A stretch of 64,000 bases of DNA from Verrucomicrobiota bacterium (GCA_043803015.1 JAZDKK010000026.1:20707-84706), one strand, 5' to 3'. Positions 2,487 to 45,600 are shown, counted from the first letter of the stretch. Program-made: numbers and translations. The notes: generated by a model from the letters alone, not told the origin.

Positions 2487-2588
2487 TTTTTCCAGACCTT
2501 GGAAAAAAAGCGCTCCGGTTCTCCAAGGGTTGGACTTGTCCGCCGTGGCGGAAAATCCGCGCCCTGTTTTTCCAAGGATTGGAAAAAA
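2487..2588. repeat. Cluster of three TTCCAA-N3-TTGGAA-type palindromes
   Basis: TTCCAG-ACC-TTGGAA at 2490, CTCCAA-GGG-TTGGAC at 2521, TTCCAA-GGA-TTGGAA at 2570, with T- and A-tract flanks. Same family at 28020-28102 and 45522-45600. Confidence 0.85.
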
Positions 2589-2598
2589 CCCCGGGACG

Positions 2599-2964
2599 CT
2601 ATCCGCGGTTCGCGCGCCCCGAGCGCAGGCGAGTGTAGAGCCACGACACGAGGAACAGAAGGCCTCCCGACGAGAAGAGGAGGGAGAACCGCTCGCTGGG
2701 AAAATGTCCCCTCTGTGCGTAGTTCACGACGTAGAACAGCACAAGGCTCAGGGCCGTGATCAACCCACCGAGGCCTTCGCTGAACCAGCCGACGATCATC
2801 CCGATGCAGACCCCGACCGGGAAGAACAGGCTCAGCAACATCTCCCGGGCGGTCATGTGCGCGGGGTTGAAGCCCTCGCCGATCATGAACACCAGAATAA
2901 TGCCGACACCCAGGACGCTCAGCACCCTCGCGATCCAGCCGATGACATTCGTCTTCACGCGCAC
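2599..2964 (-). CDS. Small hypothetical membrane protein (about 4 TM segments)
   Basis: Four hydrophobic stretches; directly downstream of the amidohydrolase on the same strand. The 3' end is less certain. Confidence 0.65.
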   Translation of the reverse strand: MRVKTNVIGWIARVLSVLGVGIILVFMIGEGFNPAHMTAREMLLSLFFPVGVCIGMIVGWFSEGLGGLITALSLVLFYVVNYAQRGHFPSERFSLLFSSGGLLFLVSWLYTRLRSGRANRG

Positions 2965-2979
2965 CCCTCTTTCTTGCGG

Positions 2980-3780
2980 TCAGATCCCCAGCAGCCTCGC
3001 GGCGTTGTCGTGGAACACGGCGGAGAGCTCGGCGTCGGCCAGGCCGGTGTTCCGGACCAGCGCGATCTCCTTGTCCTGCTCGGCCCACGGCGAGTCGGTG
3101 CCGAAGAGGATCTTCTCGATCCCGTGCTTCCGCGCCATCCGGACGAAGCGGTTGGCCGGAAGGAAGGAGAGCGTGAAGGACGTGTCGAAGTAGAGGTCCT
3201 TGCCCACCAGGTACTTCTCGACGTCGTCCCACATCTCGAACCCGCCGAAGTGCGCGGCGACGACGGCGAGCTCGGGCACCCTTTCCAGCACGTGCACGAG
3301 CCGGTCGGGGTTGCCGTGGTACGGGGGCCCCAGCCCGATGTCCACGCCGGCGTGGAAAAACGCGATGAGGCCGGCCGCGGCCATCTGGCGGTACAGCGGG
3401 AACATGCGCTCCTCGTCGACGTAAAACGCCTGGTAGTCCGGATGGAACTTCACGCCCTTGAGGCCGGCCCTCTTCATCCGGCCGATCTCGGCCGCGTTGC
3501 CGTCGTAGTCCGGGAAGAGCGTGCCGAAGTTGATCAGCCCGGGTCGTTCGTTCAGCCGGATGGCGAAGGCGTTGATGCTCGCCACCTGCGAAGCCTTGGT
3601 CGAAACCGGCTGGGTCACGCTGAGGTCGATGCCGCAGCGGCGCATGGAAGCTTCAAGTCCGGCGGCGGTGCCGTCGAGGAACGCCGTCTCGCCCGACCGT
3701 CCCGCCAGTTGCTGAACCGCTCTAGCGGCGATCTCGTCGGGGAAAATGTGCGTATGGATGTCGATGATCCGGCGCTTCAT
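2980..3780 (-). CDS. Amidohydrolase family protein (Amidohydro_2)
   Basis: IIDIHTH, GLKGVKFHP, FHAG, VAAHFGG, KILFGTDSPW motifs. Confidence 0.9.
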   Translation of the reverse strand: MKRRIIDIHTHIFPDEIAARAVQQLAGRSGETAFLDGTAAGLEASMRRCGIDLSVTQPVSTKASQVASINAFAIRLNERPGLINFGTLFPDYDGNAAEIGRMKRAGLKGVKFHPDYQAFYVDEERMFPLYRQMAAAGLIAFFHAGVDIGLGPPYHGNPDRLVHVLERVPELAVVAAHFGGFEMWDDVEKYLVGKDLYFDTSFTLSFLPANRFVRMARKHGIEKILFGTDSPWAEQDKEIALVRNTGLADAELSAVFHDNAARLLGI

Positions 3781-3881
3781 GGCTGTAAGGGAATTCCCAC
3801 AGCGACCGGGCCCTTTATACTTGTGACGCGGCCGACTTACAAGATAGCGTTCTTCGGGGTACGATAAAACTCAGAGAGCCG

Positions 3882-4079
3882 ATGATGGATGCGCATGCCA
3901 AAGAGACCGCGGAGTCGGGCGAACTGATGTACGTGAAGTGCGCCTACTGCGGCAAGTGGATGGACGTGAAGCCCGGTCACCTGCACTGGGTCAGCCACGG
4001 CCTTTGCGAGGACTGCCTCAAGAAGGAACTCGAGAAGGCGCGCGCCATGATTCCTCCGGAACAGACCCCCGCTTCGTAG
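3882..4079 (+). CDS. Small putative zinc-binding protein (CxxC...SHGxCxxC)
   Basis: CAYC...SHGLCEDC; coding-like codon usage; divergent from the amidohydrolase. Confidence 0.7.
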   Translation: MMDAHAKETAESGELMYVKCAYCGKWMDVKPGHLHWVSHGLCEDCLKKELEKARAMIPPEQTPAS

Positions 4080-4084
4080 ACCCC

Positions 4085-4184
4085 CGCTCGCCTCGGCGTA
4101 GCCTCCGGCGAAGCCCGGGCGGCCGGTTCGCCTGCCCGCCCTCGCTCGCCAAGCGAGGGAGCAGGCGGGGAGAACCGGCCCTAC
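4085..4184. repeat. Composite REP-like element with nested mini-hairpins
   Basis: 36-bp unit CGCTCGCCTCGGCGTAGCCTCCGGCGAAGCCCGGGC at 4085-4120, then GGCCGGTTC...GAGAACCGGCC-CTAC with CCTGCCCGCC...GCAGGCGGG (4131-4169) in its loop. Confidence 0.75.
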
Positions 4185-4193
4185 CCTTAAGGC

Positions 4194-5123
4194 CTACGGC
4201 GCCGCGTACATCGCCACGTAGTCCGGCAGCCACGCCAGGTAGTTCAGGTACTGGCTCGGAAGGTTCGTGACAAAGGACTCCGTGGCCGTCACCTGGCGCA
4301 TGTTCGGGCCGAGCTCGACGACCCACCCGTCCTTGATCTTCAGCTGCGGAATCTCCTGTCCGTCCGCGTAGACCAGCTCGAAAACCATCGTCCGCGAGGC
4401 CTCGCCGAACTGGTAGAAACTGGATTTGAGTCCCGGCTCCGAGACCTTCAGGAACCGGTCGAACCGGCTGGCGCCCAGCGTCACCTGCAGGGCATCGTAC
4501 AGGTCCTGCTGGAGCGCCTTGCCGTCCTCGGCAAACGTGGGGATGTTCAGGATGGCCTTGTCCGGCCGCGGGTTGGTGACCGTGATGATGGCGGCCTCGA
4601 TGTCGGAGAGATACTTCCGCGCGTAGACCAGGACGTCGTTGATGTTCTGTTCCTCCTCGGGCGTGATCTTCAGGAGCTCGACGACGTCCGGGTGCAGGGC
4701 GAAATCCTCGGTGAGAGGGGTCAGCTGCACCTTCGACATGAAGTTCTCGGGCAGCGGGTACTTGCCGCGGAAGTTGGTCAGCATCCAGTTGAGCACGGCG
4801 ATCAGCCGCGCCTGGAGCGTCTGGTTCTCCTGCCGGAGCGCGCGGTTTTCCTCGGTCAGCATCGCCACCTTGCGCGACAACTCGTCGGCCGGGCCGGGCG
4901 CCGCCGCCGGGGCCCGGACAGGATTGGCGACGGAGGACCTGACCGCCGGAAGCGTCAGGGGCTTGCCCGCGGTGAAGGTGACGCCGGGCCGGACCGCGGG
5001 AAGAACGCGCTTCGGCAGGACCCCGCGATGCTGAAAGAGGCCGAAGGATTCCGCCATCAGCGCTCCGAAGAGAGCGAGCGTCACGACCACCGCAAAAGCC
5101 ACGTAGAAAGCTGACGATCTCAC
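4194..5123 (-). CDS. Hypothetical N-terminally membrane-anchored protein with a coiled coil
   Basis: GTG start, hydrophobic N-terminus, heptad segment DELSRKVAMLTEENRALRQENQTLQARL. No family recognised. Confidence 0.7.
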   Translation of the reverse strand: MRSSAFYVAFAVVVTLALFGALMAESFGLFQHRGVLPKRVLPAVRPGVTFTAGKPLTLPAVRSSVANPVRAPAAAPGPADELSRKVAMLTEENRALRQENQTLQARLIAVLNWMLTNFRGKYPLPENFMSKVQLTPLTEDFALHPDVVELLKITPEEEQNINDVLVYARKYLSDIEAAIITVTNPRPDKAILNIPTFAEDGKALQQDLYDALQVTLGASRFDRFLKVSEPGLKSSFYQFGEASRTMVFELVYADGQEIPQLKIKDGWVVELGPNMRQVTATESFVTNLPSQYLNYLAWLPDYVAMYAAP

Positions 5124-5182
5124 GTCGATTCAAACCCCGCGACGGTGCACCGCGACATTATCAGGCGGGTGCAAACCGCAAG

Positions 5183-7894
5183 TCAAGGCGTTAGGCGGCT
5201 CGCCAGCACCGCCGCGCCGCCGGCGGGAAGGGCGACGACCAGGTTTGTCCCGCGGCCCCCGAGCGCCGGGGCCGCCGACACGATGACGTCCCATTTCCCC
5301 TCGCCCGGAAGGGCCACGCTCACCGGCTGCTCCTCCCTCCCGAAGTTGACCGCGACGACCACCCAGGCCCTGGCCACGACCCGCTCGTACACCGCGATGC
5401 CGGGCTGGGGTTGGGGCTGGAACCGGACCCCGCCGGACTGCAGCGCGGGGTGGCCGGTCCTGAGGCGCGCCAGCGCCCTGAAGTTCTCGTGCAGCGCGCG
5501 GCCGGCCGGCTGGTCGAGGTCGGGCCAGTGCAGGGGATTTCTCCCGAGCACCTTGGGCGTGGCTTCGCCAAATTCCTCGCCGGCGTAGACCATCGCCACG
5601 CCGGGCGCCGTCAGGGCGACGGCGATGGCCGCGAGGTCCCTGCGGAGGGCCTCCTCCTCCCGGAAGCCCGCCCCCCGGAGCTCGCGGAGGAAACGCTCCT
5701 CGTCGTGGCTCTCGACGTAGGCCACGCGTTCCAGCGCGTTGCTGAAGCCCAGCGTCAGCGGGCTCATGATCCGCTCGAACTCGGCCCGGTCCAGCTTCGC
5801 GTTCCGGATCATGTCGCGCAGGCGCCAGCGGAAGTAGTCGTGCCAGCCGGAATCCATCTCGGTCCCCGCCTGCAGCTCCGGGTCCGCAGGCAGGTGCTCC
5901 GCGATCTGGTAGCTGTTGCTGTCCGCCTGCTTCGCGGCGTAGGCGAACCAGCTCGCGCCCCAGTCGTTGTAGCCTTTCCACCCGACCCAGCGCGTGGCGT
6001 CGTAGCGGAACCCGTCGACATGGTAGTCCTCGATCCAGAAGCGGAGCAGGTCGGCCGCGTAGCCCTTGAACGCGTCGGACGATTGTTCGAGGTCCGGGAA
6101 CCCCCAGTTCTCGCCGAGGAACAGGTGGAAGTAGGGACTGGCGTCGTAGTCCGGCCCGTAGAGCTGGAACAGCGGCGAGTTCCAGTCCATGTGGTTCAGC
6201 ACGAGGTCCACGATCACGGCCAGCCCGCGGCGGTGCGCCTCGTCCACGAGGCGCTTGAGCTCGTCCGGCGTTCCGTACGCGGATTCCGGCGCGTAGTGGA
6301 ACGCCGGGTTGTACCCCCAGCTCCAGCCGCCGGGGAACTCCGTGACGGGAAGCGGTTCGACCGCGGTGACCCCGAGGTCCCGGATGTAGTCGAGCCGCGC
6401 GATCACGCCGGTGAAGCCCTGGCCGGGAGCCAGGTCATCGATCGCGAACTCGTAGATCACGAGGTCCCGGAGCGGCGGCCGCCTGAACCCGGCATCGGTC
6501 CACGCGAACGGCGCGGCCCCCACCCTGAGGATGGCGAGCGCCTTCTCTGGGACGTGCGTCTCCTTCCCTTCTTCGTCTTTCCACTCCACGTCGCGCGCGC
6601 ACGGATCGGCGAGGAACTGGGTGCCGTCAAGGCAGTACTGATAGGTGTACGTCCCGGGTTCGAGGCGTCGCCGCAGCCACCACCCGCCCCCGGGCGACAG
6701 GCTCATCAGGTCGGCGAGCGGGTCCCACCCGTTGAAGTCGCCGACGACGGAGACGAAGTGCTTGGCGGGCGCGTAGAGAACGAAGGTGACGTCGCCCTGT
6801 TCGTCGGCCGCGGCGCCGGGACGGGCGCCGGGCGGCAGGGCCTCCTCCCGGTACGGAGGAACGCGCCAGAACTCCGCCTGCTTCATGGCCACGAGCCCAT
6901 CCGCGACGGCACGGGCGACCACGGCATGCCGCCCGTACTCGAGATTCGTCACGCTGACGGGCCACTCAAACGGACGCCCGCACAGCGAGACGAGCGGCTG
7001 GCCGTCCAGCCACAGGCTGACGGCCTCCGACCTGAAAACCTGTACGGTCACGGTCAGGCTGTCGCGGACGGCTTGCCCGTCGAACGGCGCGACAAAGCGC
7101 ACGACGGCGCCGGTCGCGCTGGATTCGTCGCCGATGCCCATGTTGTAGTTCCGGCCGAGGTCGGTGTCCCAGACCTTCCCCCAGTGCGCAGCCGCATGGA
7201 GCGTCTGGACCACCTGCTCGGCCCGGTGGAAGGGCCCGAGCACGATCGTCGAGTTGCCCAGCCGGTCGGGCGGCGGCAAGGACGAATCCACGGCCAGCCC
7301 GTCCTCCGACGGCACCGTGCCCGCCGGCCAGTAGTTCGATGACGGCCGGCTCCACAAGCCGTGCTCGGCGTTCACGCCCCAGCGCAACTGCCCGCCGGCG
7401 GCGCTTCGGTGAACCGTGACGGTCACGGCGTCGTTGAGCGTAGGCGCCGCGGGACTGAAACCGATCCGCGCCTGGGTGATCGGGACGTGGTAGTCGTTGC
7501 CGTTGGCCGTGTCCCACCGGCCGTCGGCCCACTGGATCGCGAAATCCACCGAGCGGACCGGCTGGCTCGTGCTGTTGAACGGACCCATCGTGACGCGGCA
7601 CACGCCCTGGCTGTCCGGCGCGGACAGCGGCGTGCGGGTGGCGACGCCGTCCTCCTTCGAGCCCGCCGGCCGATAGGACGGGGCCGCCGGCTCCCAGGAG
7701 TTGCCCCGCGCGTTGACGCCCCAGTGCAGCACCCCACCCTGCGCGCACCCTGCGATCTCGATCCGGATCACGTCCTCGAGCGTGGGCGACGCAGGTTGAT
7801 GACAAACCTCTATCGCCGCCGCGCGGGAGACCGCGAGGGCGAGCAGGAGCGACAGCCATGGAGCGTGCCTGCGCATGATGGATCGGGGTTCCAT
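5183..7894 (-). CDS. Secreted GH13 alpha-amylase-family glycoside hydrolase with duplicated N-terminal modules, an Ig-like domain and CBM48
   Basis: Signal peptide; catalytic regions DLVLNH, GFRYDAT, IAEHL, ESHDE; CBM48 segment TFVLYAPAKHFVSVVGDFNGW. Start at 7894 or 7876. Confidence 0.88.
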   Translation of the reverse strand: MEPRSIMRRHAPWLSLLLALAVSRAAAIEVCHQPASPTLEDVIRIEIAGCAQGGVLHWGVNARGNSWEPAAPSYRPAGSKEDGVATRTPLSAPDSQGVCRVTMGPFNSTSQPVRSVDFAIQWADGRWDTANGNDYHVPITQARIGFSPAAPTLNDAVTVTVHRSAAGGQLRWGVNAEHGLWSRPSSNYWPAGTVPSEDGLAVDSSLPPPDRLGNSTIVLGPFHRAEQVVQTLHAAAHWGKVWDTDLGRNYNMGIGDESSATGAVVRFVAPFDGQAVRDSLTVTVQVFRSEAVSLWLDGQPLVSLCGRPFEWPVSVTNLEYGRHAVVARAVADGLVAMKQAEFWRVPPYREEALPPGARPGAAADEQGDVTFVLYAPAKHFVSVVGDFNGWDPLADLMSLSPGGGWWLRRRLEPGTYTYQYCLDGTQFLADPCARDVEWKDEEGKETHVPEKALAILRVGAAPFAWTDAGFRRPPLRDLVIYEFAIDDLAPGQGFTGVIARLDYIRDLGVTAVEPLPVTEFPGGWSWGYNPAFHYAPESAYGTPDELKRLVDEAHRRGLAVIVDLVLNHMDWNSPLFQLYGPDYDASPYFHLFLGENWGFPDLEQSSDAFKGYAADLLRFWIEDYHVDGFRYDATRWVGWKGYNDWGASWFAYAAKQADSNSYQIAEHLPADPELQAGTEMDSGWHDYFRWRLRDMIRNAKLDRAEFERIMSPLTLGFSNALERVAYVESHDEERFLRELRGAGFREEEALRRDLAAIAVALTAPGVAMVYAGEEFGEATPKVLGRNPLHWPDLDQPAGRALHENFRALARLRTGHPALQSGGVRFQPQPQPGIAVYERVVARAWVVVAVNFGREEQPVSVALPGEGKWDVIVSAAPALGGRGTNLVVALPAGGAAVLASRLTP

Positions 7895-7913
7895 GGCCTC
7901 ACCGGTCAACGTT

Positions 7914-9023
7914 TCAGCGGGCGGCTATCCGCAGAACCACGGTCCGGTTGCGGGTACGGTTATCAGCGGTGTCATTCGGGTACGGCGACCACTTCGTCCC
8001 GTACGTGATCATCTTGAACGAGCTCTCCGGCATCCCCGTCTTCAACTGCAGGAAGCGCACGACGGCCAGCGCCCTGAAGAGGCCGAGGTCCTCGTTGTTC
8101 TTGTATTCTTTCTTCGTCCGGATCGGAACGTTGTCCGTGCATCCGATGACCGTGATGAAGAGATTCGTCCGGTGCGGCGCGAGCTGCTGGGCGAGCTTGA
8201 GCAGCACGTCCTCCCCCTCGCGGCTCAGCGTGTAGCCGCTGACGAACAGCCCTGACTCGAACATCACGACTTTCTCGCTCCCCTCCACCGTCACGCGCGC
8301 GCCGGGCGCCTCGAGCTTCACCGCCGGCGCGGCGGGGCGGATCACGGGCTTCACAACGGGCTTCTCGGGGGGCGGCCGGGCCGGGGCTATTTTCGGGGCC
8401 GCGGCCGGCTTCGGCGCGGCGACGGGACCCGGCGCGCGCGCCGGTGCCGCCACGGGTTTCGCCGCCGGAGGCTGCGCCTGGGCCACTGCCCGGGACGCTG
8501 CGGGCCCGCGCTTCACGCTGCCGCGATAGGCGGCCCGGATGACACCGATGGCAAGGACGCCCATCGCGATCACCCCGAACACGGCCGCGACGGTCAGCGC
8601 ATGCGAGCTGGGTCTCCGCAGCGCATGTTTCTTCGATCCGACATCGGTCAACGGGGACAAACCCGAATACAGGGCGCCTTCAAACCGCGGAGCCGGGCGC
8701 GCCGGAGGCTTCTCCGGCGGCGGCTCTTCCGGTGCCGGTTGTTCAGGCAACGGCTCCGACAGGGGCGTATCCGGCAAGGGCGCCCCGGGCAGCGGCAGGT
8801 CCGGCAGCGGCGGTTCGGGAGAATCCGGCCCGGGCACGGGCGGCGGGTCGCTCTCCAACGCGTCCTCGCCCGTCGCCGGCGGCTCCTCGCGCGAGGGGAC
8901 GGGCGGCACCGTTTCCTCCCCGTACTTCGCCTTGGCGAAGGCAAACAAATCGAGCCCGTGGTCCCCCTCGTCGGGCGGCCCGTTCCCGTCCTCGCGTCTC
9001 AGGTCATCGTAGAGCTTGCTCAT
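7914..9023 (-). CDS. OmpA/MotB-like peptidoglycan-binding membrane protein with Pro-rich linkers
   Basis: C-terminal VMFES...ITVIGCTDN...RALAV...YG...NDTADNRTRNRTV; one TM segment; start placed at MSKLYDDL. Confidence 0.8.
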   Translation of the reverse strand: MSKLYDDLRREDGNGPPDEGDHGLDLFAFAKAKYGEETVPPVPSREEPPATGEDALESDPPPVPGPDSPEPPLPDLPLPGAPLPDTPLSEPLPEQPAPEEPPPEKPPARPAPRFEGALYSGLSPLTDVGSKKHALRRPSSHALTVAAVFGVIAMGVLAIGVIRAAYRGSVKRGPAASRAVAQAQPPAAKPVAAPARAPGPVAAPKPAAAPKIAPARPPPEKPVVKPVIRPAAPAVKLEAPGARVTVEGSEKVVMFESGLFVSGYTLSREGEDVLLKLAQQLAPHRTNLFITVIGCTDNVPIRTKKEYKNNEDLGLFRALAVVRFLQLKTGMPESSFKMITYGTKWSPYPNDTADNRTRNRTVVLRIAAR

Positions 9024-26184: not shown

Positions 26185-26191
<7 letters not shown>

Positions 26192-26655
26192 TTTACGCGA
26201 ATTCGCGCGAATTCAGGGAGGAAACCGCCTTGGCTAAACTCCTGGAGAAGGACCTCGTCTACCGCATTGTCGGCTGTGCCATGAAGGTCCACACGGAAGT
26301 CCGCTACGGACTGCGGGAGAAGACCTACGAACGTGCGCTGTGCGTCGAGTTCCGCCACCAGGGGATTTCGTTCAATCAGCAATGCGTTTATCCCGTTCTC
26401 TATCGGGACGAGAGGATCGACGAGTATATCCCTGACCTCGAAGTAGAGGGCCGGGTGCTGATTGATGCCAAGACGATCGAGAACATCACGGATATCGAGC
26501 GCGGCCAGATGATGAACTACCTCCGCATCTCCGGCCGCAAGGTCGGCCTCATCATCAACTTCAAACACCCGTCCTTGCAGTGGGAACGCGTCGTGCTGGA
26601 TTCGGCCCGCTGACTTTCTTCTCTTCAATTCGCGCACATTAGCGTAAATTAGCGG
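26185..26655. mobile_element. Putative IR-bounded single-gene cassette (GxxExxY)
   Basis: Left CCGCTAATTTACGCGAATTCGCGCGAATT (26185-26213) against the reverse complement of 26627-26655, CCGCTAATTTACGCTAATGTGCGCGAATT (26/29). Mobility is inferred. Confidence 0.6.
26230..26613 (+). CDS. GxxExxY protein (PD-(D/E)xK-like), flanked by 29-bp inverted repeats
   Basis: YGLREKTYE, DLEVE...IDAK, QMMNYL...GLIINF; TTG start after GGAGG; lower GC than its neighbours. Confidence 0.9.
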   Translation: MAKLLEKDLVYRIVGCAMKVHTEVRYGLREKTYERALCVEFRHQGISFNQQCVYPVLYRDERIDEYIPDLEVEGRVLIDAKTIENITDIERGQMMNYLRISGRKVGLIINFKHPSLQWERVVLDSAR

Positions 26656-26672
26656 TGCCTTAGCGGTGGCCT

Positions 26673-27926
26673 ATGGAAGCCTTCACTTACAAGAACGGCC
26701 AGCTGCACGCGGAGGGCGTCGGGGTCGCTGAACTCGCCGCCCGCCACGGCACCCCTCTGTTCATCTACAGCCGCACGCACCTCGAGGAGCAGTACCGCGC
26801 CCTGGCCGCCGCGATGAAGGCGGTCGAGCCGCTCCTCTGCTTCTCCGTGAAGGTCAATACCAACGCGGCGGTGATCAGGACGTTCGCCGACCTCGGGGCC
26901 GGCGCCGACGTGGTTTCCGGCGGCGAGCTGTTCCGCGCGCGCCGGGCCGGCGTGCCCGCGGACCGGATCGTCTTCGCCGGCGTGGGCAAAACCGTCGAGG
27001 AGATCGAGTACGCCCTGAAAGAGGGCATCCTGTTTTTCACCGTCGAGTCCGAGGCCGAGCTGGAGCGGATCGCCGAATGCGCGGTGCGCCTGCGCCAGAC
27101 GGCGCGCGTGGCCCTGCGGGTCAACCCGGACGTGGACCCGAAGACCCACCGCTACATCAGCACGGGAAAGAAGGAGAACAAGTTCGGACTGGACCTCGTG
27201 CGGGCCGAGCGCGCGTACGAGCAGGCCTCGCGGCTCTCGAACCTCGAGATCGTCGGCCTGCACATGCACATCGGCTCGCAGATCCTTTCGCCGGAGCCGT
27301 ACGCGGAATCGCTGGAGAAGGTCGCCGGCCTGTGCCAGCAGCTCAAGCGGCGGTTCCCGTCGTTCAAGTACATCGACTTCGGCGGCGGACTGGGCATCCA
27401 GTACAAATACGAAGAGCGTCCGCTGGACCCGCGCCGTTTCGCGGACGTGGTCGTGCCGCACCTGCAGGAGTTCGGCCTCTCCGTGGTCATGGAGCCGGGC
27501 CGCTTCCTCGCCGGCAACGCCGGCATCCTCGTGGCGCGCGTGCAGTACGTCAAAGAGAACTCCGTCAAACGGTTTGTCATCGTGGACGCCGCGATGAACG
27601 ACCTGATCCGCCCGCCGCTCTACCAGGCGCACCACGAGATCGTGCCGGTCCGGGAGACGTCCGGGACCGTCCTCGGCGACGTGGTGGGCCCGGTGTGCGA
27701 GTCCGCCGATTTTCTCGCCGTCGACCGCGAGCTCCCGCGCGTGCAGGCGGGCGACCTCCTGGCCGTTCGCGGCGCGGGCGCGTACGCGTTCGCGATGGCC
27801 TCGAACTACAACAGCCGCGGCCGCGCGGCCGAGGTCATGGTCTGGGGCGCGAAGAGCGCGCTGATCCGCGAGCGCGAGACCCGCGAAGACCTCGTCCGCG
27901 GCGAGAAGACGCCCAAGTGGAAGTAA
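26673..27926 (+). CDS. lysA: Diaminopimelate decarboxylase
   Basis: FSVKVNTN, DVVSGGE, LRVNP, KFG, HMHIGSQ, DFGGG, EPGR, GPVCESAD, GAYAFAMASNYN. Confidence 0.97.
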   Translation: MEAFTYKNGQLHAEGVGVAELAARHGTPLFIYSRTHLEEQYRALAAAMKAVEPLLCFSVKVNTNAAVIRTFADLGAGADVVSGGELFRARRAGVPADRIVFAGVGKTVEEIEYALKEGILFFTVESEAELERIAECAVRLRQTARVALRVNPDVDPKTHRYISTGKKENKFGLDLVRAERAYEQASRLSNLEIVGLHMHIGSQILSPEPYAESLEKVAGLCQQLKRRFPSFKYIDFGGGLGIQYKYEERPLDPRRFADVVVPHLQEFGLSVVMEPGRFLAGNAGILVARVQYVKENSVKRFVIVDAAMNDLIRPPLYQAHHEIVPVRETSGTVLGDVVGPVCESADFLAVDRELPRVQAGDLLAVRGAGAYAFAMASNYNSRGRAAEVMVWGAKSALIRERETREDLVRGEKTPKWK

Positions 27927-28019
27927 CTCGCGCCGGCGCGACGCGCGTTTTTCCAATCCGCCTGCCTGCCAGCCCCGCGGCCCGGGGGCAGGCTGGCCCC
28001 GCACGCTGTGCGTGGGGCG

Positions 28020-28102
28020 GGCAGGTCCTTGGAGAAATGGCTCGTATCTTTTTCCAATCCTTGAAAAAATGGCTCCTAGATTTTCCAATGTCTGGAAAAA
28101 AA
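28020..28102. repeat. TTCCAA-N3-TTGGAA-type palindromes, 31-bp phased
   Basis: Half-site TTGGAG at 28029; TTCCAA-TCC-TTGAAA at 28052; TTCCAA-TGT-CTGGAA at 28083. Confidence 0.85.
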
Positions 28103-28116
28103 GGCCGAGGTGCCAC

Positions 28117-28983
28117 ATGTTCGAAGGTGCTTATACAGCGATAGTTACGCCGTTCAACAAGGACGGCAGCGTGGATTTCGCTAAACTCCGCGACCTGATC
28201 GAATTCCAGGTCAAGAACGGGATCGACGGCATCGTGCCGGTCGGAACGACCGGCGAGTCGCCGACGCTCGACTACGAGGAGCACGAGAAAGTCGTCGAGG
28301 TTTCGGTCCAGGCGACGCGGAGAAGGATGAAAGTCATCGCCGGCACGGGCGCCAATTCGACCCGCGAGGCGCTGGAGCTGACCCGGCACGCGATCGGGGC
28401 CGGGGCGGACGCGACCCTCCAGGTCACCCCGTACTACAACAAGCCGAACCAGGCCGGCCTGATCAAGCACTTCACGGCCGTGGCGGACCTCGGTCTGCCG
28501 ACGGTGCTCTACAACATCCCCGGCCGGACCGGCCGCGAGATCGATGTGGCCACGGTGGTCGAGCTGTCGAAGCACCCGAAGATCGTCGCGCTCAAAGAGG
28601 CGGGCGGGAGCGTGGACCGCGTGAGCCAGATCGTAACCCGCTGCAAGATCGAGGTGTTGTCCGGCGACGACTCGCTCACCCTGCCGATGATGGCGGTGGG
28701 CGCGCTCGGCGTCATCAGCGTGGTTTCCAACATCGCGCCCAAAGCGGTCGCGGACCTGGTGCACGCCGCCCCGAAAGGCGACTGGAAGCAGGCGCAGGCG
28801 CTGCACCAGAAATACTACCGGCTGTTTACGGACCTCTTCATCGACACCAACCCCATCCCGGTCAAGGCGGCGATGGCGATGATGGGCCTGTGCGAAGAGG
28901 TGTATCGTCTGCCGCTCTGCGAGATGGCGGCGAAAGGCAGAGAGACGGTGAGAGAAACACTCAAGGCGCTTGGGCTGATTTGA
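28117..28983 (+). CDS. dapA: 4-hydroxy-tetrahydrodipicolinate synthase
   Basis: TAIVTPF, GTTGES, AGTGANST, LYNIPGRT, LKEA, NPIPVK. Confidence 0.97.
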   Translation: MFEGAYTAIVTPFNKDGSVDFAKLRDLIEFQVKNGIDGIVPVGTTGESPTLDYEEHEKVVEVSVQATRRRMKVIAGTGANSTREALELTRHAIGAGADATLQVTPYYNKPNQAGLIKHFTAVADLGLPTVLYNIPGRTGREIDVATVVELSKHPKIVALKEAGGSVDRVSQIVTRCKIEVLSGDDSLTLPMMAVGALGVISVVSNIAPKAVADLVHAAPKGDWKQAQALHQKYYRLFTDLFIDTNPIPVKAAMAMMGLCEEVYRLPLCEMAAKGRETVRETLKALGLI

Positions 28984-29409
28984 TTGCCGATTGCCGATGT
29001 CCGATTGCCGAATGAAGAGATGAACAAGAACGACCTGAAGGAGCGAACCAAGAGCTTCGGACTTCGTTGCGTCAATCTGACGAATGCCCTGCCGAAGACT
29101 GCGGCCGGCCACGTGCTGGGCAACCAGCTGCTCAGGGCCGGGACCTCCGTCGGGGCCAACTACCGATCGGCCTGCAGAAGCAGGTCAACGGCAGAGTTCA
29201 TCGCGAAGATCGGCGTGGTGGAAGAAGAGGCAGATGAATGCTGCTACTGGCTGGAGATAGTCCGCGACGCCAAGCTGATGAAAGCGGCCCTTCTTCAATC
29301 TTTGTTGCAGGAAGCGGATGAGCTGACTGCTATAATGGCAGCGTCTCGTAAATCGGCGGCAAGGAATCGTCGTCGCTGATTCGGAAATCGGCATTCGGAA
29401 ATCGACAAT
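28983..29409. mobile_element. Putative cassette: four-helix-bundle gene between inverted heptamer arrays
   Basis: (ATTGCCG)n at 28983-29013 against the reverse complement of 29379-29409 (25/31); spans exactly dapA stop to dapB ATG. Mobility is inferred. Confidence 0.6.
29020..29379 (+). CDS. Four-helix-bundle protein (bAvd/23S-IVP-like)
   Basis: DLKERTKSF, QLLRAGTSVGANYR, S.AEFIAK, EEADECCYWLE, EADEL.AI; lower GC. Confidence 0.92.
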   Translation: MNKNDLKERTKSFGLRCVNLTNALPKTAAGHVLGNQLLRAGTSVGANYRSACRSRSTAEFIAKIGVVEEEADECCYWLEIVRDAKLMKAALLQSLLQEADELTAIMAASRKSAARNRRR

Positions 29410-40079: not shown

Positions 40080-40161
40080 CAGTGTTCGGTGTTCAGTGTT
40101 CGGTGTTCGGTCTCGGAAGCAATGCTATCCACCGAATACTGAAAACCGAACACTGAACACT
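40080..40161. repeat. Inverted heptamer-array hairpin (RGTGTTC)4...(GAACACY)n, likely a bidirectional terminator
   Basis: CAGTGTTCGGTGTTCAGTGTTCGGTGTTCGG against CCGAATACTGAAAACCGAACACTGAACACT, between convergent stop codons. Confidence 0.8.
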
Positions 40162-40166
40162 TCTTC

Positions 40167-40901
40167 CTACTCGTCCACCAGGTCGATGAGGTCCCTGACC
40201 GAGTCATTCGACTCTTTCTGAGGCCTGGACTCGGGTTGGCGTTCCGGTTGCGGCTCCGGCTGCGGCTCTGCTTGGGCGGGTGCGCCTTCCTGAACCGGCA
40301 GAGGCGCCTCCTCGGCAGAACCCGGACGCTCGCCCCGGTCTCCGCGGTCATCCCGGTCGCCCCGGTCGCCGCGGTCGCGCCGGTCGCCGCGGTCGCCACG
40401 ACCGCCTCGGCGTCCGCGCCGTCTCGACGGACCACGGTCACCGCCACCGCCCTCTCCTCTCCCACCGCCGTTCTCCATCGCTCTCCGGAACGTGGCTGGC
40501 TTCATGACCCCGCCGCCGATCTCAAGGACCCTCTTCTCCACTTGCGGGTTCGAGGTGATCACGGTGACCTGCCGGCTCCGGACCTCGTGCTTGAGCAGGC
40601 TGACCAAGAGGTCCTGCAGGGCGGCCACCTTCTCCGCAAAGTAGACGGACACGGCCCCGTAGGTCTCTCCGTTGGCGACCTCGCGCAGGGGGCGTCCCTC
40701 GAAGACCGCCTGGATGCGGAGGTGCTCCTTCTCGGCGAACTGCGAGAGCTGCTGGAGAACGCTGATCTGGTCGCGCGGCCCCAGCCGGTCGTTCCTGCCG
40801 CTCAGCAACGGCGCCGCGTCCACGATGTAGAGGCGCTTGGATCGGCTGCCGCCGGGGCCGCCGCCTGAAAACAGCGCCTTGATTCTGTCGAAGAGGCTCA
40901 T
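40167..40901 (-). CDS. NYN/PIN (YacP)-like domain with an Arg/Gly/Asp low-complexity tail
   Basis: YIVDA...AVFEG...V.F...VITSN...G..M...F pattern, then RRRGRRGGRGDRGDRRDRGDRGDRDDRGDRG. Start placed at MSLFDRIK. Confidence 0.65.
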   Translation of the reverse strand: MSLFDRIKALFSGGGPGGSRSKRLYIVDAAPLLSGRNDRLGPRDQISVLQQLSQFAEKEHLRIQAVFEGRPLREVANGETYGAVSVYFAEKVAALQDLLVSLLKHEVRSRQVTVITSNPQVEKRVLEIGGGVMKPATFRRAMENGGGRGEGGGGDRGPSRRRGRRGGRGDRGDRRDRGDRGDRDDRGDRGERPGSAEEAPLPVQEGAPAQAEPQPEPQPERQPESRPQKESNDSVRDLIDLVDE

Positions 40902-41153
40902 GAATACTCCTGTTCCCTGGGCCACGCTGGCCCAAAACAAGCCCCGCACCTTACCTGAGGGGAGAGGCAACTGCAAGGGTGGAGTTACCGGCCCTTCTGG
41001 CGGCTCCGGGTGGATCGCGTTGCCCTCAACGCGATCGAGCGCGCCTTGGGGGCAGGGCGCGCCACCCCGGCCCGCGCGAGCGCGGGCCCTACACGGCGTT
41101 GGTTGACGGAGGCGCCTTGAATCGCTAAGGTCTGCACCTTTTACGGGCCAACC

Positions 41154-41897
41154 ATGTCCGAGCAGAGCCGCTATACAATTCATTGCCCGAAGTGCCGGCA
41201 CCCGCAGTCGGTGGAGCTGTACGAGTCCATCAACGTGCAGTCGGCCCCGGATCTCAAGGAGAAGCTGATGGCCAATCAGGTCAACCTGGTGGTCTGCGGG
41301 CAGTGCGGCCTCTCCTTCCGCGTGGACAAGTCGCTCCTCTACCACGACCCCGCCCGCCGGGTCATGATCTACCTGCTCCCGCTCGGCGAGGCGGCCTTCG
41401 AAGCGGGCGAGCAGGAGTTCTCCGACCTCCTGCGCCGCCTGAACGGGGTGTTGCCGGAAGGCGTCCAGGCGCCCGAGGTCTGCCTGGTTTTCAGCCGCGT
41501 CGAGCTCATCGAGCGCATCTTCCTCTTCGACGCCGGGCTCAACGAGCGCGTGATCGAGTACATCAAGTACATGATCTACACGCGGAACCTGGCCAAGGTC
41601 ACCCCGGCCGAGAAAGCCCTGCTGTTCGACGCCCAGGATTCCACGCCGGAGAACCTGCGCTTCGTCGTGCAGGATGTGAAGACCCGGAAACTGGAGGCGG
41701 TGCTGGACTACGAGCGGAAGGCCTACACGGCGTTGTGCGAGATGTTCGACCGCGACAGCCAGACCCCGACGCTCCTGGAGCTGTTCCCCGGCCCGCACGT
41801 CAGCGCGCGGGCGCTGCTTCTGCGGGAGGCGCGGACACCGCCGGCAGCGGGGAAACCGCCAGCGGGAGAGAAAAAGAAGCCGGCGGGTTCGTCGTAG
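41154..41897 (+). CDS. CpXC domain protein
   Basis: CPKC...INV...PDLKE......CGQCG......LLYHDP. Confidence 0.85.
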   Translation: MSEQSRYTIHCPKCRHPQSVELYESINVQSAPDLKEKLMANQVNLVVCGQCGLSFRVDKSLLYHDPARRVMIYLLPLGEAAFEAGEQEFSDLLRRLNGVLPEGVQAPEVCLVFSRVELIERIFLFDAGLNERVIEYIKYMIYTRNLAKVTPAEKALLFDAQDSTPENLRFVVQDVKTRKLEAVLDYERKAYTALCEMFDRDSQTPTLLELFPGPHVSARALLLREARTPPAAGKPPAGEKKKPAGSS

Positions 41898-42594
41898 CCG
41901 AAGGGGCCGGCGTTTCTTTCTTCTTCGGGTTCTTCTGGGCCCGCATTTCCTTGTCCACGAACAGCAGGGCGTTCTCGGCCAGGGGCGCCCAGCGGCTCGT
42001 GGCGTGCGCGGCTATGAACTCCTCGTAGACCGCCTTGGCCTCCTGGAACCGGCCCTGCTGCGCGTAGCAGCGCGCCTTCCCGAGGAAGGCCAGCGGCGCG
42101 AGGTAGTGATTCGTGTACGCGTTCGCAAACGCGTCGAAGGCCGCGATCGCGCCGTCCCACTGTTCCGTGGCTTCCAGGCACTGCGCCTTGCCCAGCTCGG
42201 CGGCCTGCCGCATCGGATGCGCCGGGTACTTCGAGATGAACTGGTCGTAGGTGAAACGGGCCACATCGTACTGGCCGGCATCGAAGTAGGCCGCGGCCAG
42301 CGTCATCTGGGCGACGGGAGCGGACGGCGCCGAGGGATACTGGCTGATGACCTGCTGGAGCTGCTCCGGGCTGCGGGCGTTGAGCAGCATCTGCGACGCG
42401 CGCATGGAGATGGACTGCCTGTAGTTCTTGTACGCGCCGATCCCGAGGACGAGCGCCACCGCGACGCCGACGCCGATGATGACCGACTGGCCGTGCTGCT
42501 TCAGCTGGGCGAGCAGCTTCTGGGTCTCCGTCTGTTCGGCCGGCTTGGTCTCCGCCGGTGTCGTCTGCCCCCGAAGTTCTGGTTCTTCCGCCAT
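41800..42594 (-). CDS. Membrane-anchored TPR protein (YfgM-like)
   Basis: One TM segment then repeated TPR helices (LAAAYF..G.YD.A...Y..F...YP.H). Confidence 0.8.
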   Translation of the reverse strand: MAEEPELRGQTTPAETKPAEQTETQKLLAQLKQHGQSVIIGVGVAVALVLGIGAYKNYRQSISMRASQMLLNARSPEQLQQVISQYPSAPSAPVAQMTLAAAYFDAGQYDVARFTYDQFISKYPAHPMRQAAELGKAQCLEATEQWDGAIAAFDAFANAYTNHYLAPLAFLGKARCYAQQGRFQEAKAVYEEFIAAHATSRWAPLAENALLFVDKEMRAQKNPKKKETPAPSATTNPPASFSLPLAVSPLPAVSAPPAEAAPAR

Positions 42595-42668
42595 GTGTTT
42601 CGCTGTCCTTTTCGCCGATCGGTTGCGTATTTATGGCGTTGCCGCGGGGGAAACGCAAGTCCTGCGTT

Positions 42669-42753
42669 GTAGGGGCGCTTGTGCTTGCCTCGGCGAAGCT
42701 CGGAGAGCGAAGCCGGGTCAAGCGCCCTGGGCGCTTCGCAGAAGCGCCCCTAC
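42669..42753. repeat. GTAG REP doublet with a nested GAAGC hairpin
   Basis: GTAGGGGCGCTT...AAGCGCCC...GGGCGCTT...AAGCGCCCCTAC; a variant of the 36-bp unit at about 42683-42717 sits in the first loop. Confidence 0.7.
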
Positions 42754-43304
42754 AACGACGGCGTCGCAGGGGTCCCGCCGGCGTCCTCCTTGACCGCCTG
42801 CTGGTAGATCTCGACCACGCGCGCGGCGGCCGATTCGGGGCTCAGGTGCGTCGTGTCGATCTGAAGCGGGATGGCCTCGTACAGGGGCTTGCGCGCTTCC
42901 AGCAATTCCAGAAGCTTGCGCGCCTTGTCGCCGCCTTCGAGCAGCGGGCGGTGGCTCTCGCTGCGCACGCGCTGGAGAATGGCGGTCGGGGAGGCCTTGA
43001 GGCAGATGACGACGCCGGTCCTGCCGAAGTCACGGATGTTGTCGGGGTTGAGCACCACGCCGCCGCCGGCGGTGATGACCAGGTTCTTCCTGGCGCTGAG
43101 TTCAACGACCAGTTGTCTTTCGAGTTCGCGGAAGCGGGTCTCGCCGTCGCGGGCGAAGATCTCCATGATCTTCCGGCCCGCCCGCCCCTCGATCATGGTG
43201 TCCATGTCGACCATCGAGCGTTCGAGCCGCAACGCCACGAGGCGCCCCGTCGCCGTCTTGCCCGTCCCCATGAAACCGACGAGCACGATGTTGGTCTTGT
43301 TCAC
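42750..43304 (-). CDS. aroK: Shikimate kinase
   Basis: VLVGFMGTGKT, D.D..IE, GE..FRELE, TAGGG, RPLL, R...Y. Confidence 0.95.
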   Translation of the reverse strand: MNKTNIVLVGFMGTGKTATGRLVALRLERSMVDMDTMIEGRAGRKIMEIFARDGETRFRELERQLVVELSARKNLVITAGGGVVLNPDNIRDFGRTGVVICLKASPTAILQRVRSESHRPLLEGGDKARKLLELLEARKPLYEAIPLQIDTTHLSPESAAARVVEIYQQAVKEDAGGTPATPSL

Positions 43305-43333
43305 CCACCCCCCCGTTCCCCGCCCCGCCCCAT

Positions 43334-43375
43334 CAAAAAAGGGGGTCTCCCTTTCGTAAAGGCGGAACCCCCTCC
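43334..43375 (-). terminator. Intrinsic terminator downstream of the csp gene
   Basis: Minus strand GGGGTTCC-GCCTTT...AAAGG-GAGACCCC followed by TTTTTT. Confidence 0.6.
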
Positions 43376-43408
43376 TGATTCACCACGGTGTTTCGATCGC
43401 GCGGACTG

Positions 43409-43630
43409 CTACTGAACCTGGGACTCCGTCAGGCGCACCACATCGCGCGCCCGGGCTCCCTTGGGATCCTGGAAAATCTCGAATTGTACCTTGTCGCCTT
43501 CGCTCAACGTCTTGAACCCGTCCGCGAGAATAGCGGAGTAGTGCACGAACACGTCCTGATTCATCCCGTCGGGCACGATAAAACCATACCCCTTCTTCTC
43601 GTTGAACCACTTGACGGTACCTTGGGCCAT
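43409..43630 (-). CDS. cspA: Cold-shock protein
   Basis: [15 protein letters not shown] (RNP1), VFVHYSAI (RNP2). Confidence 0.95.
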
Positions 43631-43737
43631 ACGGATAACCTCCCGTTACTGATTGGCTGTATTCTTGCGTCTGGCCAGTGAATTACAAGTGGAATATTTG
43701 AATTTTCTGTACTTTTTGTAACCCCCGCGGGACCCCG

Positions 43738-44565
43738 TCAGAGGACCCCCCCGGACGCCCAGCCGACATACGCATCCCACCACCCCTTGCCCCAGAGAAT
43801 CCAGATGACCGCGGCGACCGCCAGGTAGGGCCCATAGGGCACCCGGCTCTGCCACTGTTTCCTCCGCGCCAGCACCAAGGCCCCGCTCAGAGCCGACCCC
43901 AGCACGGAGGAAAGCATGACGGTGAACAATACCGCCCGCCATCCCAGCAGGGCCCCGAGACCCCCCAGCAGCTTCACGTCGCCCATGCCCATGGCGTCCT
44001 TCTTGAAGACCCATTTCCCCACTATCGCCACCGCCCAGAGCAGGCCGGCACCCGCCGCCGCGCCGATCAGCGCCGCCACGAGACCGCCAAGCCACGTCGA
44101 CTCACCATGGAGCGAGGGCACCAGCGGGCTCAGCACGAGACCCGCCACGATTCCGCCCAGCGTCACGCGGTCCGGGATGATCATGTACTCAAGGTCCACG
44201 AAGGTGCCGAGCGCCAGGCCCGAGACCACCATCCAGTAGATCGGCGTCCTCGCGTCCACGCCGTACTGGATCCAGACGAGAAGAAACAGGACGCCCACCA
44301 GCCCCTCCACGAGGAAGTACCGGATCGAGATCGTCCCGCCGCAGTGCCGGCACCGGGCCCGGAGCAACACGTAGCTCAAAAGCGGGATGTTGTCGTACCA
44401 CGCGATCATCTTCCCGCAGTGCGGACAATGCGACCGCGGCGCCACCACCGACTCCTCGCGCGGGATGCGGTAAATGCATACGTTGAGGAAACTTCCGACG
44501 CAGCAGCCGAGGACGAAGACCACGAAGCTGAAGTAGCCGTAGAGGAAAGGGAAGACGTCCATCAT
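43738..44565 (-). CDS. pilD: Prepilin peptidase/N-methyltransferase
   Basis: GSFLNVCIYRIP, SHCPHC...NIP..SY..LR.RCRHC, DLE..IIPD, MGMGDVKL, PYGPYL. Confidence 0.95.
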   Translation of the reverse strand: MMDVFPFLYGYFSFVVFVLGCCVGSFLNVCIYRIPREESVVAPRSHCPHCGKMIAWYDNIPLLSYVLLRARCRHCGGTISIRYFLVEGLVGVLFLLVWIQYGVDARTPIYWMVVSGLALGTFVDLEYMIIPDRVTLGGIVAGLVLSPLVPSLHGESTWLGGLVAALIGAAAGAGLLWAVAIVGKWVFKKDAMGMGDVKLLGGLGALLGWRAVLFTVMLSSVLGSALSGALVLARRKQWQSRVPYGPYLAVAAVIWILWGKGWWDAYVGWASGGVL

Positions 44566-45419
44566 TTGCCGTACACCGCCTTCTCCAGCGCCTTGCGCAT
44601 GACCTCCGACGGCGGTTTGGCCCCGGTCCAGATCTCGAAGGCCCTGACGCCCTGGTAGAGGAGCATCCCGAGCCCGTTGGCGGTCCGTGCGCCGACGGCC
44701 TTCGCGGACTTCATCAGGGGGGTCTCCGGGTGCAGGTACACCAGGTCAAACACGAGCTGGCCGCGGCGGAACGCCGCGGAACCGATCGGCGGGGCGTCGT
44801 CCTGCTTCATGCCCAGCGGCGTGGCCTGCACCACGAGGTCCGCCGCGCGCGCGCCGCGCTCCCAGTCGTCCGAAACCTCGGCCATGCTCACCTCGGTGAA
44901 GAACTGCGTGTCGATCTCCATCAGCACCTTCCTCGCCCTCACCCTGTCCGTGTCCGCCAGCATGATCGACCGCGCGCCCGAGCCGGCGCAGGTCACGGCC
45001 ACCGCGCGCCCCGCCCCGCCCACGCCGCAGACGAAGACCGACTTGCCGGCCACCGGCTCGCCGAAGGCCTCCTCGACCGCGCGCAGGAAGCCGTCGCCGT
45101 CCGTGTTGTAGCCGATCATCCCGTCCGGCGTGAACTTGACGGTGTTCACCGCGCCGAGCAGCTGCGCGGACTCGTCGAGCCGCGTCATGAGCTTGCACGC
45201 GGTTTCCTTCAGCGGCACCGTGATGTTCGCGCCGCCAAATCCCATCGCCCTCATGCCGGCCAGGACCTCGGGCAGGCGCTCCGGGGGAACATCGAAGGCC
45301 ACGTAGACCGCATCCATTTCGAGGGCCTCGAACGCCGCATTGTGCATGACGGGCGACAGCGTATGCCCGACCGGGTGGCCGAGGATCGCGAAGGTCTTGG
45401 TGTGTCCGCCGATTTTCAT
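44562..45419 (-). CDS. aroE: Shikimate dehydrogenase
   Basis: PVGHTLSP.MHN, GANITVPLK, GAVNT, GYNTDG.GF, GVGGAG, ATPLG, DLVY, NGLGML.YQ. Confidence 0.95.
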   Translation of the reverse strand: MKIGGHTKTFAILGHPVGHTLSPVMHNAAFEALEMDAVYVAFDVPPERLPEVLAGMRAMGFGGANITVPLKETACKLMTRLDESAQLLGAVNTVKFTPDGMIGYNTDGDGFLRAVEEAFGEPVAGKSVFVCGVGGAGRAVAVTCAGSGARSIMLADTDRVRARKVLMEIDTQFFTEVSMAEVSDDWERGARAADLVVQATPLGMKQDDAPPIGSAAFRRGQLVFDLVYLHPETPLMKSAKAVGARTANGLGMLLYQGVRAFEIWTGAKPPSEVMRKALEKAVYGK

Positions 45420-45426
45420 GTTTTCG

Positions 45427-45522
45427 ATCCCACGGGCTTGCCCCGTGGAGGGTCAGGCCGCTTGACGGCGACCCCGTCGCTGGTCCTCCAACCTAAGCAT
45501 CCACGGGACAAGCCCGTGGGAT
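45427..45522. repeat. Inverted pair of 23-bp palindromic REP-like units
   Basis: ATCCCACGGGCTTGCCCCGTGGA (45427-45449) and TCCACGGGACAAGCCCGTGGGAT (45500-45522); 22/23 complementary. Confidence 0.8.
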
Positions 45523-45600
45523 TCCGATGCTTGGAAAGTCTCAGCTAGATTTTTCCAATCCTTGGAACATTAAGCCAGAACATTTCCAATGTTTGGAGAA
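45522..45600. repeat. Three TTCCAA-N3-TTGGAA palindromes at 31-bp spacing
   Basis: Starts at 45522 (TTCCGA-TGC-TTGGAA), 45553 (TTCCAA-TCC-TTGGAA) and 45584 (TTCCAA-TGT-TTGGAG). Confidence 0.88.

Follow-up and report, generated by a model that had tools for sequence, protein, structure and literature searches.

The 64,000-bp stretch of Verrucomicrobiota DNA analysed here (C26:20707-84706; hereafter the window) carries, in three gaps between genes, clusters of a short palindrome, TTCCAA-N3-TTGGAA, which we call the P unit and which recurs through the genome at a nearly invariant spacing of 31 bp. We hold with moderate confidence that P units may be phased docking sites on duplex DNA for a cooperative dimeric protein, with a mosaic organisation resembling that of repetitive extragenic palindromic (REP) units and bacterial interspersed mosaic elements (BIME), and with partial turnover of the copies. 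Phased sites for a dimeric protein had already been suggested in a preliminary description of the window, and this proved the best-supported reading, given the exact three-turn spacing, a core that is kept while the spacers drift, and half-sites that vary independently; the candidate proteins that we tried all failed.

The genome (2.15 Mb in 84 contigs, 65.7% GC, 66% complete) is that of a Kiritimatiellia-type member of the Verrucomicrobiota, and its closest dapA loci come from metagenome-assembled genomes named Kiritimatiellae, Lentisphaerae or Verrucomicrobia. When the window was scanned for TTCCAA-N3-TTGGAA at up to one or two mismatches, with 100 shuffles as background, seven matches were found with at most one mismatch, against 0.04 expected. 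Every palindrome reported earlier at the three loci was located, with unit starts at 2490, 2521 (two mismatches), 2570, 28052, 28083, 45522, 45553 and 45584, and the four start-to-start steps of 31 bp that had been noted were recovered as well (2490-2521, 28052-28083, 45522-45553 and 45553-45584).

The scan of the whole genome returned 130 sites at up to one mismatch, of which 93 match perfectly; by extrapolation of the window shuffles, about one would be expected. The P unit of this genome reads TTTTTCCAA-N-S-N-TTGGAAAAA; the full unit is a 21-bp palindrome, TT(T/C)TTCCAA-N-S-N-TTGGAA(A/G)AA, with C or G as the central base in 128 of 129 sites, and is followed by about 10 bp of GC-rich sequence of no consensus. 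The genome-wide spacing histogram peaks at 31 bp, and random spacing was not seen: among neighbour spacings of up to 200 bp, 58 of 61 are exactly 31 bp (61 are exactly 31 bp when two mismatches are allowed), and the three exceptional spacings, of 49-51 bp, equal 31 bp plus an insert of 18-19 bp. The sites make up about 55 arrays of two to four units, which at up to two mismatches comprise 43 pairs, 11 triplets and one quadruplet.

The arrays sit between genes in every orientation. According to our own crude gene caller 13% of the DNA is non-coding, and 118 of the 130 sites (91%) fall outside called genes, while several of the 12 'genic' sites are at doubtful gene ends. Arrays occupy 30 co-directional, 12 divergent and 9 convergent gaps, and since the background of gaps longer than 60 bp is 619, 218 and 115, respectively, they fall into the gap types roughly as often as those types occur. 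Many of them lie right beside a start codon (11-25 nt away) or a stop codon (4-30 nt away). The genes downstream of arrays (dapA, aroE, icd, ruvB, aspS, lysC, folE, a PolX polymerase, an extracytoplasmic function (ECF) sigma factor and pilin-like genes, among others) are unrelated housekeeping genes with no common function. One array lies 78 bp from a gene (C9:69969-71714) whose N-terminus may resemble that of a Top6B-like type IIB topoisomerase subunit, which would be unusual in a bacterium. Because about 55 arrays occur in all gap types beside unrelated neighbours, neither the matS/parS-like role that had been put forward earlier nor a regulon-type role is indicated.

The distribution of the motif was followed in 41 genomes of the order, 50 of the class and 101 from other classes of the phylum (sampled genomes bear G-numbers, G000 being this genome). 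Within the order, the pair pattern was present in 22 of 41 genomes, with 22 to 776 pairs per genome (per-strand counts), and the control pattern gave none. The exact pair TTCCA-N5-TGGAA at 31 bp was found in 17 of the 50 class genomes versus 0 of the 101 genomes from other classes, with the control pattern absent everywhere. The distribution is patchy even inside families, and the density varies between lineages from zero to about one site per 2.4 kb. Across lineages TTCCA-N5-TGGAA is the invariant core, and the five inner bases differ by lineage 'dialect': A-NSN-T in this genome, AT-S-AT (TTCCAAT-S-ATTGGAA) in G013, AG-S-CT (TTCCAAG-S-CTTGGAA) in G011 and G015, TTCCAT...ATGGAA in G164, and two asymmetric forms, TTCCAG-RCA-TTGGAA in G003 and G007 and TTCCAC-TCA-TTGGAA in G038. 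The dialects of G164, G013 and G011/G015 alter both arms together, as would be expected if a dimer reads them. In a 100-kb sample of G011, 32 of 42 sites were intergenic and the spacing was 31 bp (14 times) or 32 bp (five times), and the arrays of G038 are oriented triplets with steps of 31 and then 22 bp; all these spacings (22, 31 and 32 bp) are close to whole helical turns.

Orthologous loci revealed both persistence and turnover. A query of ten concatenated N-termini was used, and 60 orthologous upstream regions of nine genes were fetched from nine other genomes of the family. At the gene for an SsnA-like amidohydrolase (C72:24263-25585 in this genome) an array of two to four units is present in all nine genomes examined, which represent five genera; in seven of eight relatives the ATG follows the start of the proximal unit by 37-41 bp. 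Averaged over pairs of the nine genomes, the ten core bases at this locus are 97.8% identical, the T/A flanks 73%, the centre 60% and the spacer 31.6%, the last value being about random, and the spacing is 31 or 32 bp. Elsewhere the arrays are less widely shared: one is found upstream of icd in six of ten genomes, upstream of ruvB in three of nine (differing within genera), upstream of the M20 peptidase, PolX and kpsF genes in two to three genomes each, and upstream of aspS and folE in this genome only (none of eight relatives each). From these comparisons, units and spacing are maintained actively over the long term at some loci, and other arrays are gained and lost. Units at inherited loci carry the dialect of their own lineage, which therefore points to co-evolution with a reader or to homogenisation by copying.

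As a separate observation, the ruvB upstream slot of G003 (L132) holds a run of 7-bp repeats (cagttat ctgttat cggttgt ...), and that of G007, G009 and this genome holds a P array; different repeat families appear to share this one intergenic slot.

The form in which the units are constrained was examined through their variation. Only one stem position varies frequently (-1/+15), with T.A in 68 sites, T.G in 20, C.A in 21 and C.G in 10, and there is no covariation at this position (Fisher p=0.34). When the 68 sites in co-directional gaps were oriented by the direction of transcription, no strand bias was seen in the sense orientation (26 changes of the G.U type versus 23 of the A.C type, p=0.78). 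Each arm is thus constrained on its own, with no difference between the strands, as expected if a dimer reads duplex DNA and not as expected for a hairpin.

On this basis, a homodimeric protein would dock on double-stranded P units, and as the 5-bp arms are 10 bp apart, the two monomers would contact consecutive major grooves, one each. With units placed 31 bp, or three turns, apart, neighbouring dimers would lie on one face of the helix, where they could bind cooperatively as chains of two to four and produce a small nucleoprotein block within an intergenic gap. Both the protein binding and the cooperativity are steps that we infer, and our guess as to the role of such a block is local DNA organisation or the insulation of neighbouring transcription units rather than the control of a specific regulon.

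Several observations weigh against such docking sites. First, the asymmetric dialects of G003/G007 and of G038 are unexplained by a symmetric dimer and look like the result of copying from a master sequence. Second, in G038 an array together with a 65-bp tail forms a 125-bp repeat, whose copies are 94-96% identical, end sharply and lie in four or more unrelated flanks, where no duplication is visible. Third, the array-free orthologous gaps of aspS, folE and dapA suggest that many copies may be dispensable. At the last of these genes, no array was present in the lysA-dapA gap of the four closest relatives read, and none of 13 related dapA loci had a P unit just upstream of dapA, which led us to reject a conserved dapA regulatory site. 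Finally, no candidate partner fits among the six that were tried (RAYT, Lrp/AsnC, MarR, IclR, ComEC and a phage repressor).

The Y1/RAYT transposases (PF01797) occur with and without the motif, in 39 of 41 genomes overall, and are lacking in the motif-rich genomes G002 (97% complete, 52 pairs) and G038; motif-free genomes carry many Y1 genes, and none of the six in this genome is near a P unit. The Lrp/AsnC homologue is a single-copy core gene in 40 of 41 genomes, motif-free ones included, and no P unit was found within 1.5 kb of the Lrp gene in six motif-positive genomes. The MarR-type gene that is divergent from icd across an array is present in motif-free G019 and G023 and absent from motif-rich G002, G006, G009, G020, G024 and G038; like it, a 139-aa neighbour tracks phylogeny and not the motif. 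IclR/AllR was considered because of shared half-site words, and clear matches to the IclR family were obtained in only five of 41 genomes, this one not among them. ComEC is present in this genome and in 38 of the 41 overall, both with and without the motif, and therefore nothing links it to the motif. P arrays at 31-bp spacing were also found in intergenic DNA on four of 2.9 million IMG/VR viral contigs (UViG_3300025706_000103, 3300035698_006241, 3300009838_000057 and 3300035527_000387), one of which has four units at 31, 31 and 41 bp. A phage repressor was rejected as the partner, as the arrays on these contigs are not adjacent to a repressor gene.

The main rival to a host protein reading the arrays holds that they are purely selfish, non-autonomous DNA of the REP type or of the type of miniature inverted-repeat transposable elements (MITEs), copied by a transposase, nuclease or recombinase whose gene lies elsewhere and whose site is the palindrome, with no benefit for the host. 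It differs from the proposal above mainly in who benefits, and we consider it possible but rather unlikely. Copying would account for the 125-bp repeat of G038 and for the asymmetric dialects, and the patchy occurrence of the aspS, folE and ruvB arrays and the presence of arrays on viral contigs would also suit mobile DNA, as would the lysA-dapA gap: the two closest relatives have about 20 bp there, and in this genome the gap is filled by a 190-bp block of an array plus an inserted element, X (see below). Similar spacers, with at most two differences in ten, are in excess in this genome (24 pairs versus about three in shuffles). Moreover, a terminator-like hairpin, GCCGGCGGTGCCGGC, with a T run merging into the first unit, abuts three arrays (C72:25680-25700, C4:15625-15650 and C26:9640-9665) whose last spacers are also related, and we take the shared module and spacers as evidence that array-plus-module blocks may have been copied. 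As a side observation, several loci of G038 (L092, L089, L111 and L112) have P arrays within 8-50 bp of a MITE-like element, which is about 230 bp long and has the inverted ends TGAGACACTTT.

Against purely selfish DNA, most spacers are unrelated despite their fixed length, and the motif occurs independently of Y1/RAYT genes. At array edges, direct repeats of 3-8 bp show no excess over shuffled flank pairs, so the arrays are not classical MITEs; they have no terminal repeats besides the units themselves. Unlike neutral selfish DNA, the amidohydrolase array has been retained in all nine genomes, with 98% core identity and random spacers. The MITE that was the other option of the preliminary description fails in its simple form by the criterion set there, for want of target-site duplications, of a link to a Y1/RAYT transposase and of spacers common to the arrays. 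Part of that option survives: arrays are missing from several orthologous gaps of sister genera, and this, together with the copied repeat of G038, gives the family a mobile, mosaic side. With regard to the copying of whole elements, interior included, spacers in this genome are mostly unrelated, with a weak excess of similar ones, and G038 has clear families of copies; no insertion sequence (IS) with P-type ends was found, and orphan half-sites all proved to be split units.

P units are themselves targets of insertion. Element X, a GC-rich nested hairpin of 66-70 bp (GCCTGCCTGCCAGCC...GGGGCGGGCAGG), has five copies with 91-100% identity, one at window positions 27960-28025 and the others at C82:5846-5915, C5:10084-10152, C49:2989-3057 and C52:11936-12004. 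All five lie between TTCCAA-NNN and NNN-TTGGAA, with identical flanking triplets in two of five, and X seems to be a small element that homes to P centres. The half-site reported earlier 32 bp before the second window array does exist (TTGGAG at 28029), but it is really the right half of a unit split by X, the left half of which is at 27948-27959. Z is a REP-like hairpin family, CCGCCTTCGCCAAGGCTTCGGCGGACAAGTCG, with dozens of copies in the genome, one of them in a P-unit centre (C5, ~10032). Its short form, Y (CTTGTCCGCC-N3-4-GGC, with 3 bp duplicated), lies inside P units, namely in the T/A tract at four loci (the window and three others), and is the source of the 49-51-bp spacings; insertions of the Y/Z family are at window 2535-2552, C29:26603, C57:44383, C67:2735 and C5:~10032. 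An IS30-family element of 1050 bp (C16:37939-38988), with a 317-aa transposase and inverted ends TGCAGAG..., is single-copy in the assembly and also occupies a P-unit centre, with TCA duplicated on both sides. The unit centre is hence an insertion hotspot for three unrelated elements (X, Z and the IS30-family element), which suggests a distorted or exposed centre, as might exist under a bound dimer.

A bolder form of the idea of a dimeric reader, which we advance tentatively and with little confidence, is that Kiritimatiellia may carry an undescribed genome 'punctuation', in which an abundant protein, as yet unnamed or of no recognisable family, would polymerise on phased palindromes at gene boundaries. 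The sites would be written and kept up by a dedicated activity that copies or homogenises them. Such an activity would explain why inherited loci bear lineage dialects, asymmetric ones too, and why spacers are fixed in length but free in sequence, and a bound or distorted centre would explain why three unrelated mobile elements land there.

An uptake or 'molecular drive' signal, comparable to uptake signal sequences (USS) or DNA uptake sequences (DUS), for which a receptor at the surface or in the periplasm prefers DNA with the motif and recombination of the imported DNA spreads and homogenises it, is in our opinion improbable. A class-wide motif with dialects and very uneven density, the concerted change of units at orthologous loci and the presence of ComEC in this genome are consistent with it, and USS and DUS, too, are enriched as pairs between genes. 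However, uptake signals accumulate within genes as well, whereas 91% of the P sites are in the 13% of DNA that is non-coding; USS and DUS are neither palindromic nor phased at exactly 31 bp; and ComEC occurs regardless of the motif.

Still less probable is a function as RNA hairpins (a 9-bp AU-rich stem with a 3-nt loop) in 5' or 3' untranslated regions, as mRNA stabilisers, terminators or protein-binding stem-loops. The closeness of arrays to start and stop codons means that they are probably transcribed, and in the unit split by X the P arms still close a single long hairpin (-58 kcal/mol, z = -3.3). The stems, in contrast, are weak, a two-unit stretch folds no better than shuffles (z = -1.4), no Rfam family was matched, and the whole-turn spacing (22, 31 and 32 bp) has no obvious meaning in RNA; with the lack of covariation, and with G.U not favoured over A.C when sites are read in the sense orientation, these results led us to reject an RNA or single-strand hairpin. 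An intrinsic terminator has a GC-rich stem followed by a U tract, and this, too, was rejected for the P unit, whose stem is AT-rich with its T tract 5' of the stem and with no U tract after it.

We give hardly any credence to promoter parts (with TTGGAA serving as the -35 hexamer and the T/A tracts as UP elements) or ordinary regulon operators, for although TTGGAA resembles TTGACA, a few arrays have a good -10 at 17 bp (e.g. C30:3158, TATAGT) and the amidohydrolase array keeps its distance from the ATG, -10-like hexamers 15-19 bp past the outer TTGGAA are not enriched (one of 140 array edges), nine arrays, that of window locus 1 included, lie between convergent genes where no promoter is expected, and adjacent genes have no common function, so that a general sigma-70 promoter role is ruled out. 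A mini-CRISPR has a similar repeat-spacer layout, but a 10-bp spacer and two to four repeats at about 55 loci do not fit it.

The three loci of the window (Table 1) together cover all three types of intergenic gap. Pfam places locus 1 between ilvD and a convergent DUF7670 gene, where it fills the 122 bp that separate the two stop codons, locus 2 between lysA and dapA, and locus 3 between divergent aroE and a beta-helix/NosD gene, and thus confirms the flanking genes named earlier. Locus 2 belongs to the argG-lysA-dapA-dapB operon (26185-29409), in which each of the three gaps is enlarged by a different small element. The 49-bp step from 2521 to 2570 at locus 1 arises because the 18-bp mini-hairpin Y has been added to a 31-bp step.

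Table 1. P units and nested insertions at the three window loci (positions counted from the first base of the window)
Feature	Position	Strand	Sequence and context
P unit 1, locus 1	2487..2509	.	TTTTTCCAGACCTTGGAAAAAAA; 11 bp past the ilvD stop codon
P unit 2, locus 1, degenerate	2519..2534	.	TTCTCCAAGGGTTGGA; 31 bp past unit 1
Y mini-hairpin insertion, locus 1	2535..2552	.	CTTGTCCGCCGTGGC plus duplicated GGA, within the A tract of unit 2
P unit 3, locus 1	2567..2588	.	perfect core; stops 11 bp short of the DUF7670 stop codon (convergent gene)
Split P unit, left half, locus 2	27948..27959	.	TTTTTCCAA plus TCC; 22 bp past the lysA stop
X, 66-bp GC-rich nested hairpin, locus 2	27960..28025	.	in the P-unit centre, TCC on either side; one of five genomic copies
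Split P unit, right half, locus 2	28026..28037	.	TCC plus TTGGAGAAA; in phase (32 bp) with the next unit
P unit, locus 2	28049..28069	.	TTTTTCCAATCCTTGAAAAAA
P unit, locus 2	28081..28102	.	TTTTCCAATGTCTGGAAAAAAA; ends 14 bp before the dapA ATG (28117), abuts the ribosome-binding site
P unit, locus 3, first of three	45522..45537	.	TTCCGATGCTTGGAAA; divergent aroE / beta-helix gap
P unit, locus 3, second	45550..45567	.	TTTTTCCAATCCTTGGAA, perfect core; 31 bp past the previous unit
P unit, locus 3, third	45583..45601	.	TTTCCAATGTTTGGAGAAA; 31 bp past the previous unit, ~100 bp before the ATG of the beta-helix gene (45698)

Beside the array of locus 3 another palindrome, CCACGGG-ACAAG-CCCGTGG, was noticed at 45431-45450 and 45501-45519; it also occurs on C51, to the right of an unlinked array at 87086.

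If a protein reads the arrays, a class of the Verrucomicrobiota that has been little studied would possess a new sequence-specific organiser of bacterial chromatin, and since the recognition code of this protein (TTCCA-N5-TGGAA at whole-turn spacing) is already known from the sequence, the proposal is directly testable. The family is also a natural experiment in which hundreds of dispersed short sites stay identical while their surroundings drift; this problem of site homogeneity is common to REP elements, uptake sequences and HIP1, and for most of them it is unsolved. For annotation, many AT-rich islands and unusually enlarged intergenic gaps of these genomes are accounted for by the arrays and by the X, Y, Z and IS30-family insertions that they contain.

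Full-text literature searches returned no description of the motif, nor of palindromic repeats in Kiritimatiellota; the P-unit family as such appears undescribed in the literature searched, and its organisation resembles that of REP/BIME. The operators of AllR and other IclR-type proteins (TTGGAA-W5-TTCCAA and TGGAAAT-N-ATTTCCA; PMC8222616, table 1) are built from the same 6-bp half-site words, TTGGAA and TTCCAA. The order of the arms is opposite (inverted there, everted in P units), the spacing is another one, and this genome has no clear IclR protein.

With the USS of Pasteurellaceae, the DUS of Neisseriaceae and HIP1 of cyanobacteria, P units share the character of a short word that is over-represented throughout a lineage, with dialects and uneven densities. 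Those words are, however, largely within genes and unphased, and USS and DUS are non-palindromic, whereas P sites are mostly intergenic and nearly all 31 bp from a neighbour. The sites of Lrp/AsnC (FFRP) proteins at E. coli pap and ilvIH are palindromes of 13-15 bp, of the form arm-N3-arm, about three turns apart in sets of up to four to six, wrapped on an octamer of dimers. P arrays of two to four units are likewise phased arm-N3-arm palindromes, but their centre is N-S-N and not A/T-rich, and the Lrp/AsnC homologue is ubiquitous and has no P unit nearby. NrdR boxes are paired palindromes of about 16 bp; from centre to centre they measure 31-32 bp, a whole number of turns, so that a dimer of dimers binds one face. 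The tandem arrangement and the spacing are the same here (31 bp in 58 of 61 cases); the NrdR consensus, acaCwAtATaTwGtgt, is different and is found only upstream of ribonucleotide reductase genes, whereas the roughly 55 P arrays lie beside ilvD, dapA, aroE, icd, ruvB, aspS and others, in convergent gaps too.

The REP/BIME of Enterobacteriaceae and Pseudomonas are alike in being short extragenic palindromic units in tens to hundreds of copies, clustered, mosaic and present in all intergenic contexts. The REP units of E. coli are bound by the host proteins IHF, gyrase and Pol I, IS1397 and ISKpn1 insert into E. coli REP loops with 3-4-bp duplications, and IS30 prefers palindromic hot spots. In P units the centre is similarly the insertion target, here of X, Z and the IS30-family element with 3-bp flanks. 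Unlike REPs, P units are AT-rich in a 66% GC genome, have no stem covariation and no Y1/RAYT link, and are joined by linkers fixed in length and not in sequence, at exact whole-turn spacing; their core is conserved class-wide, whereas REPs are usually species-specific.

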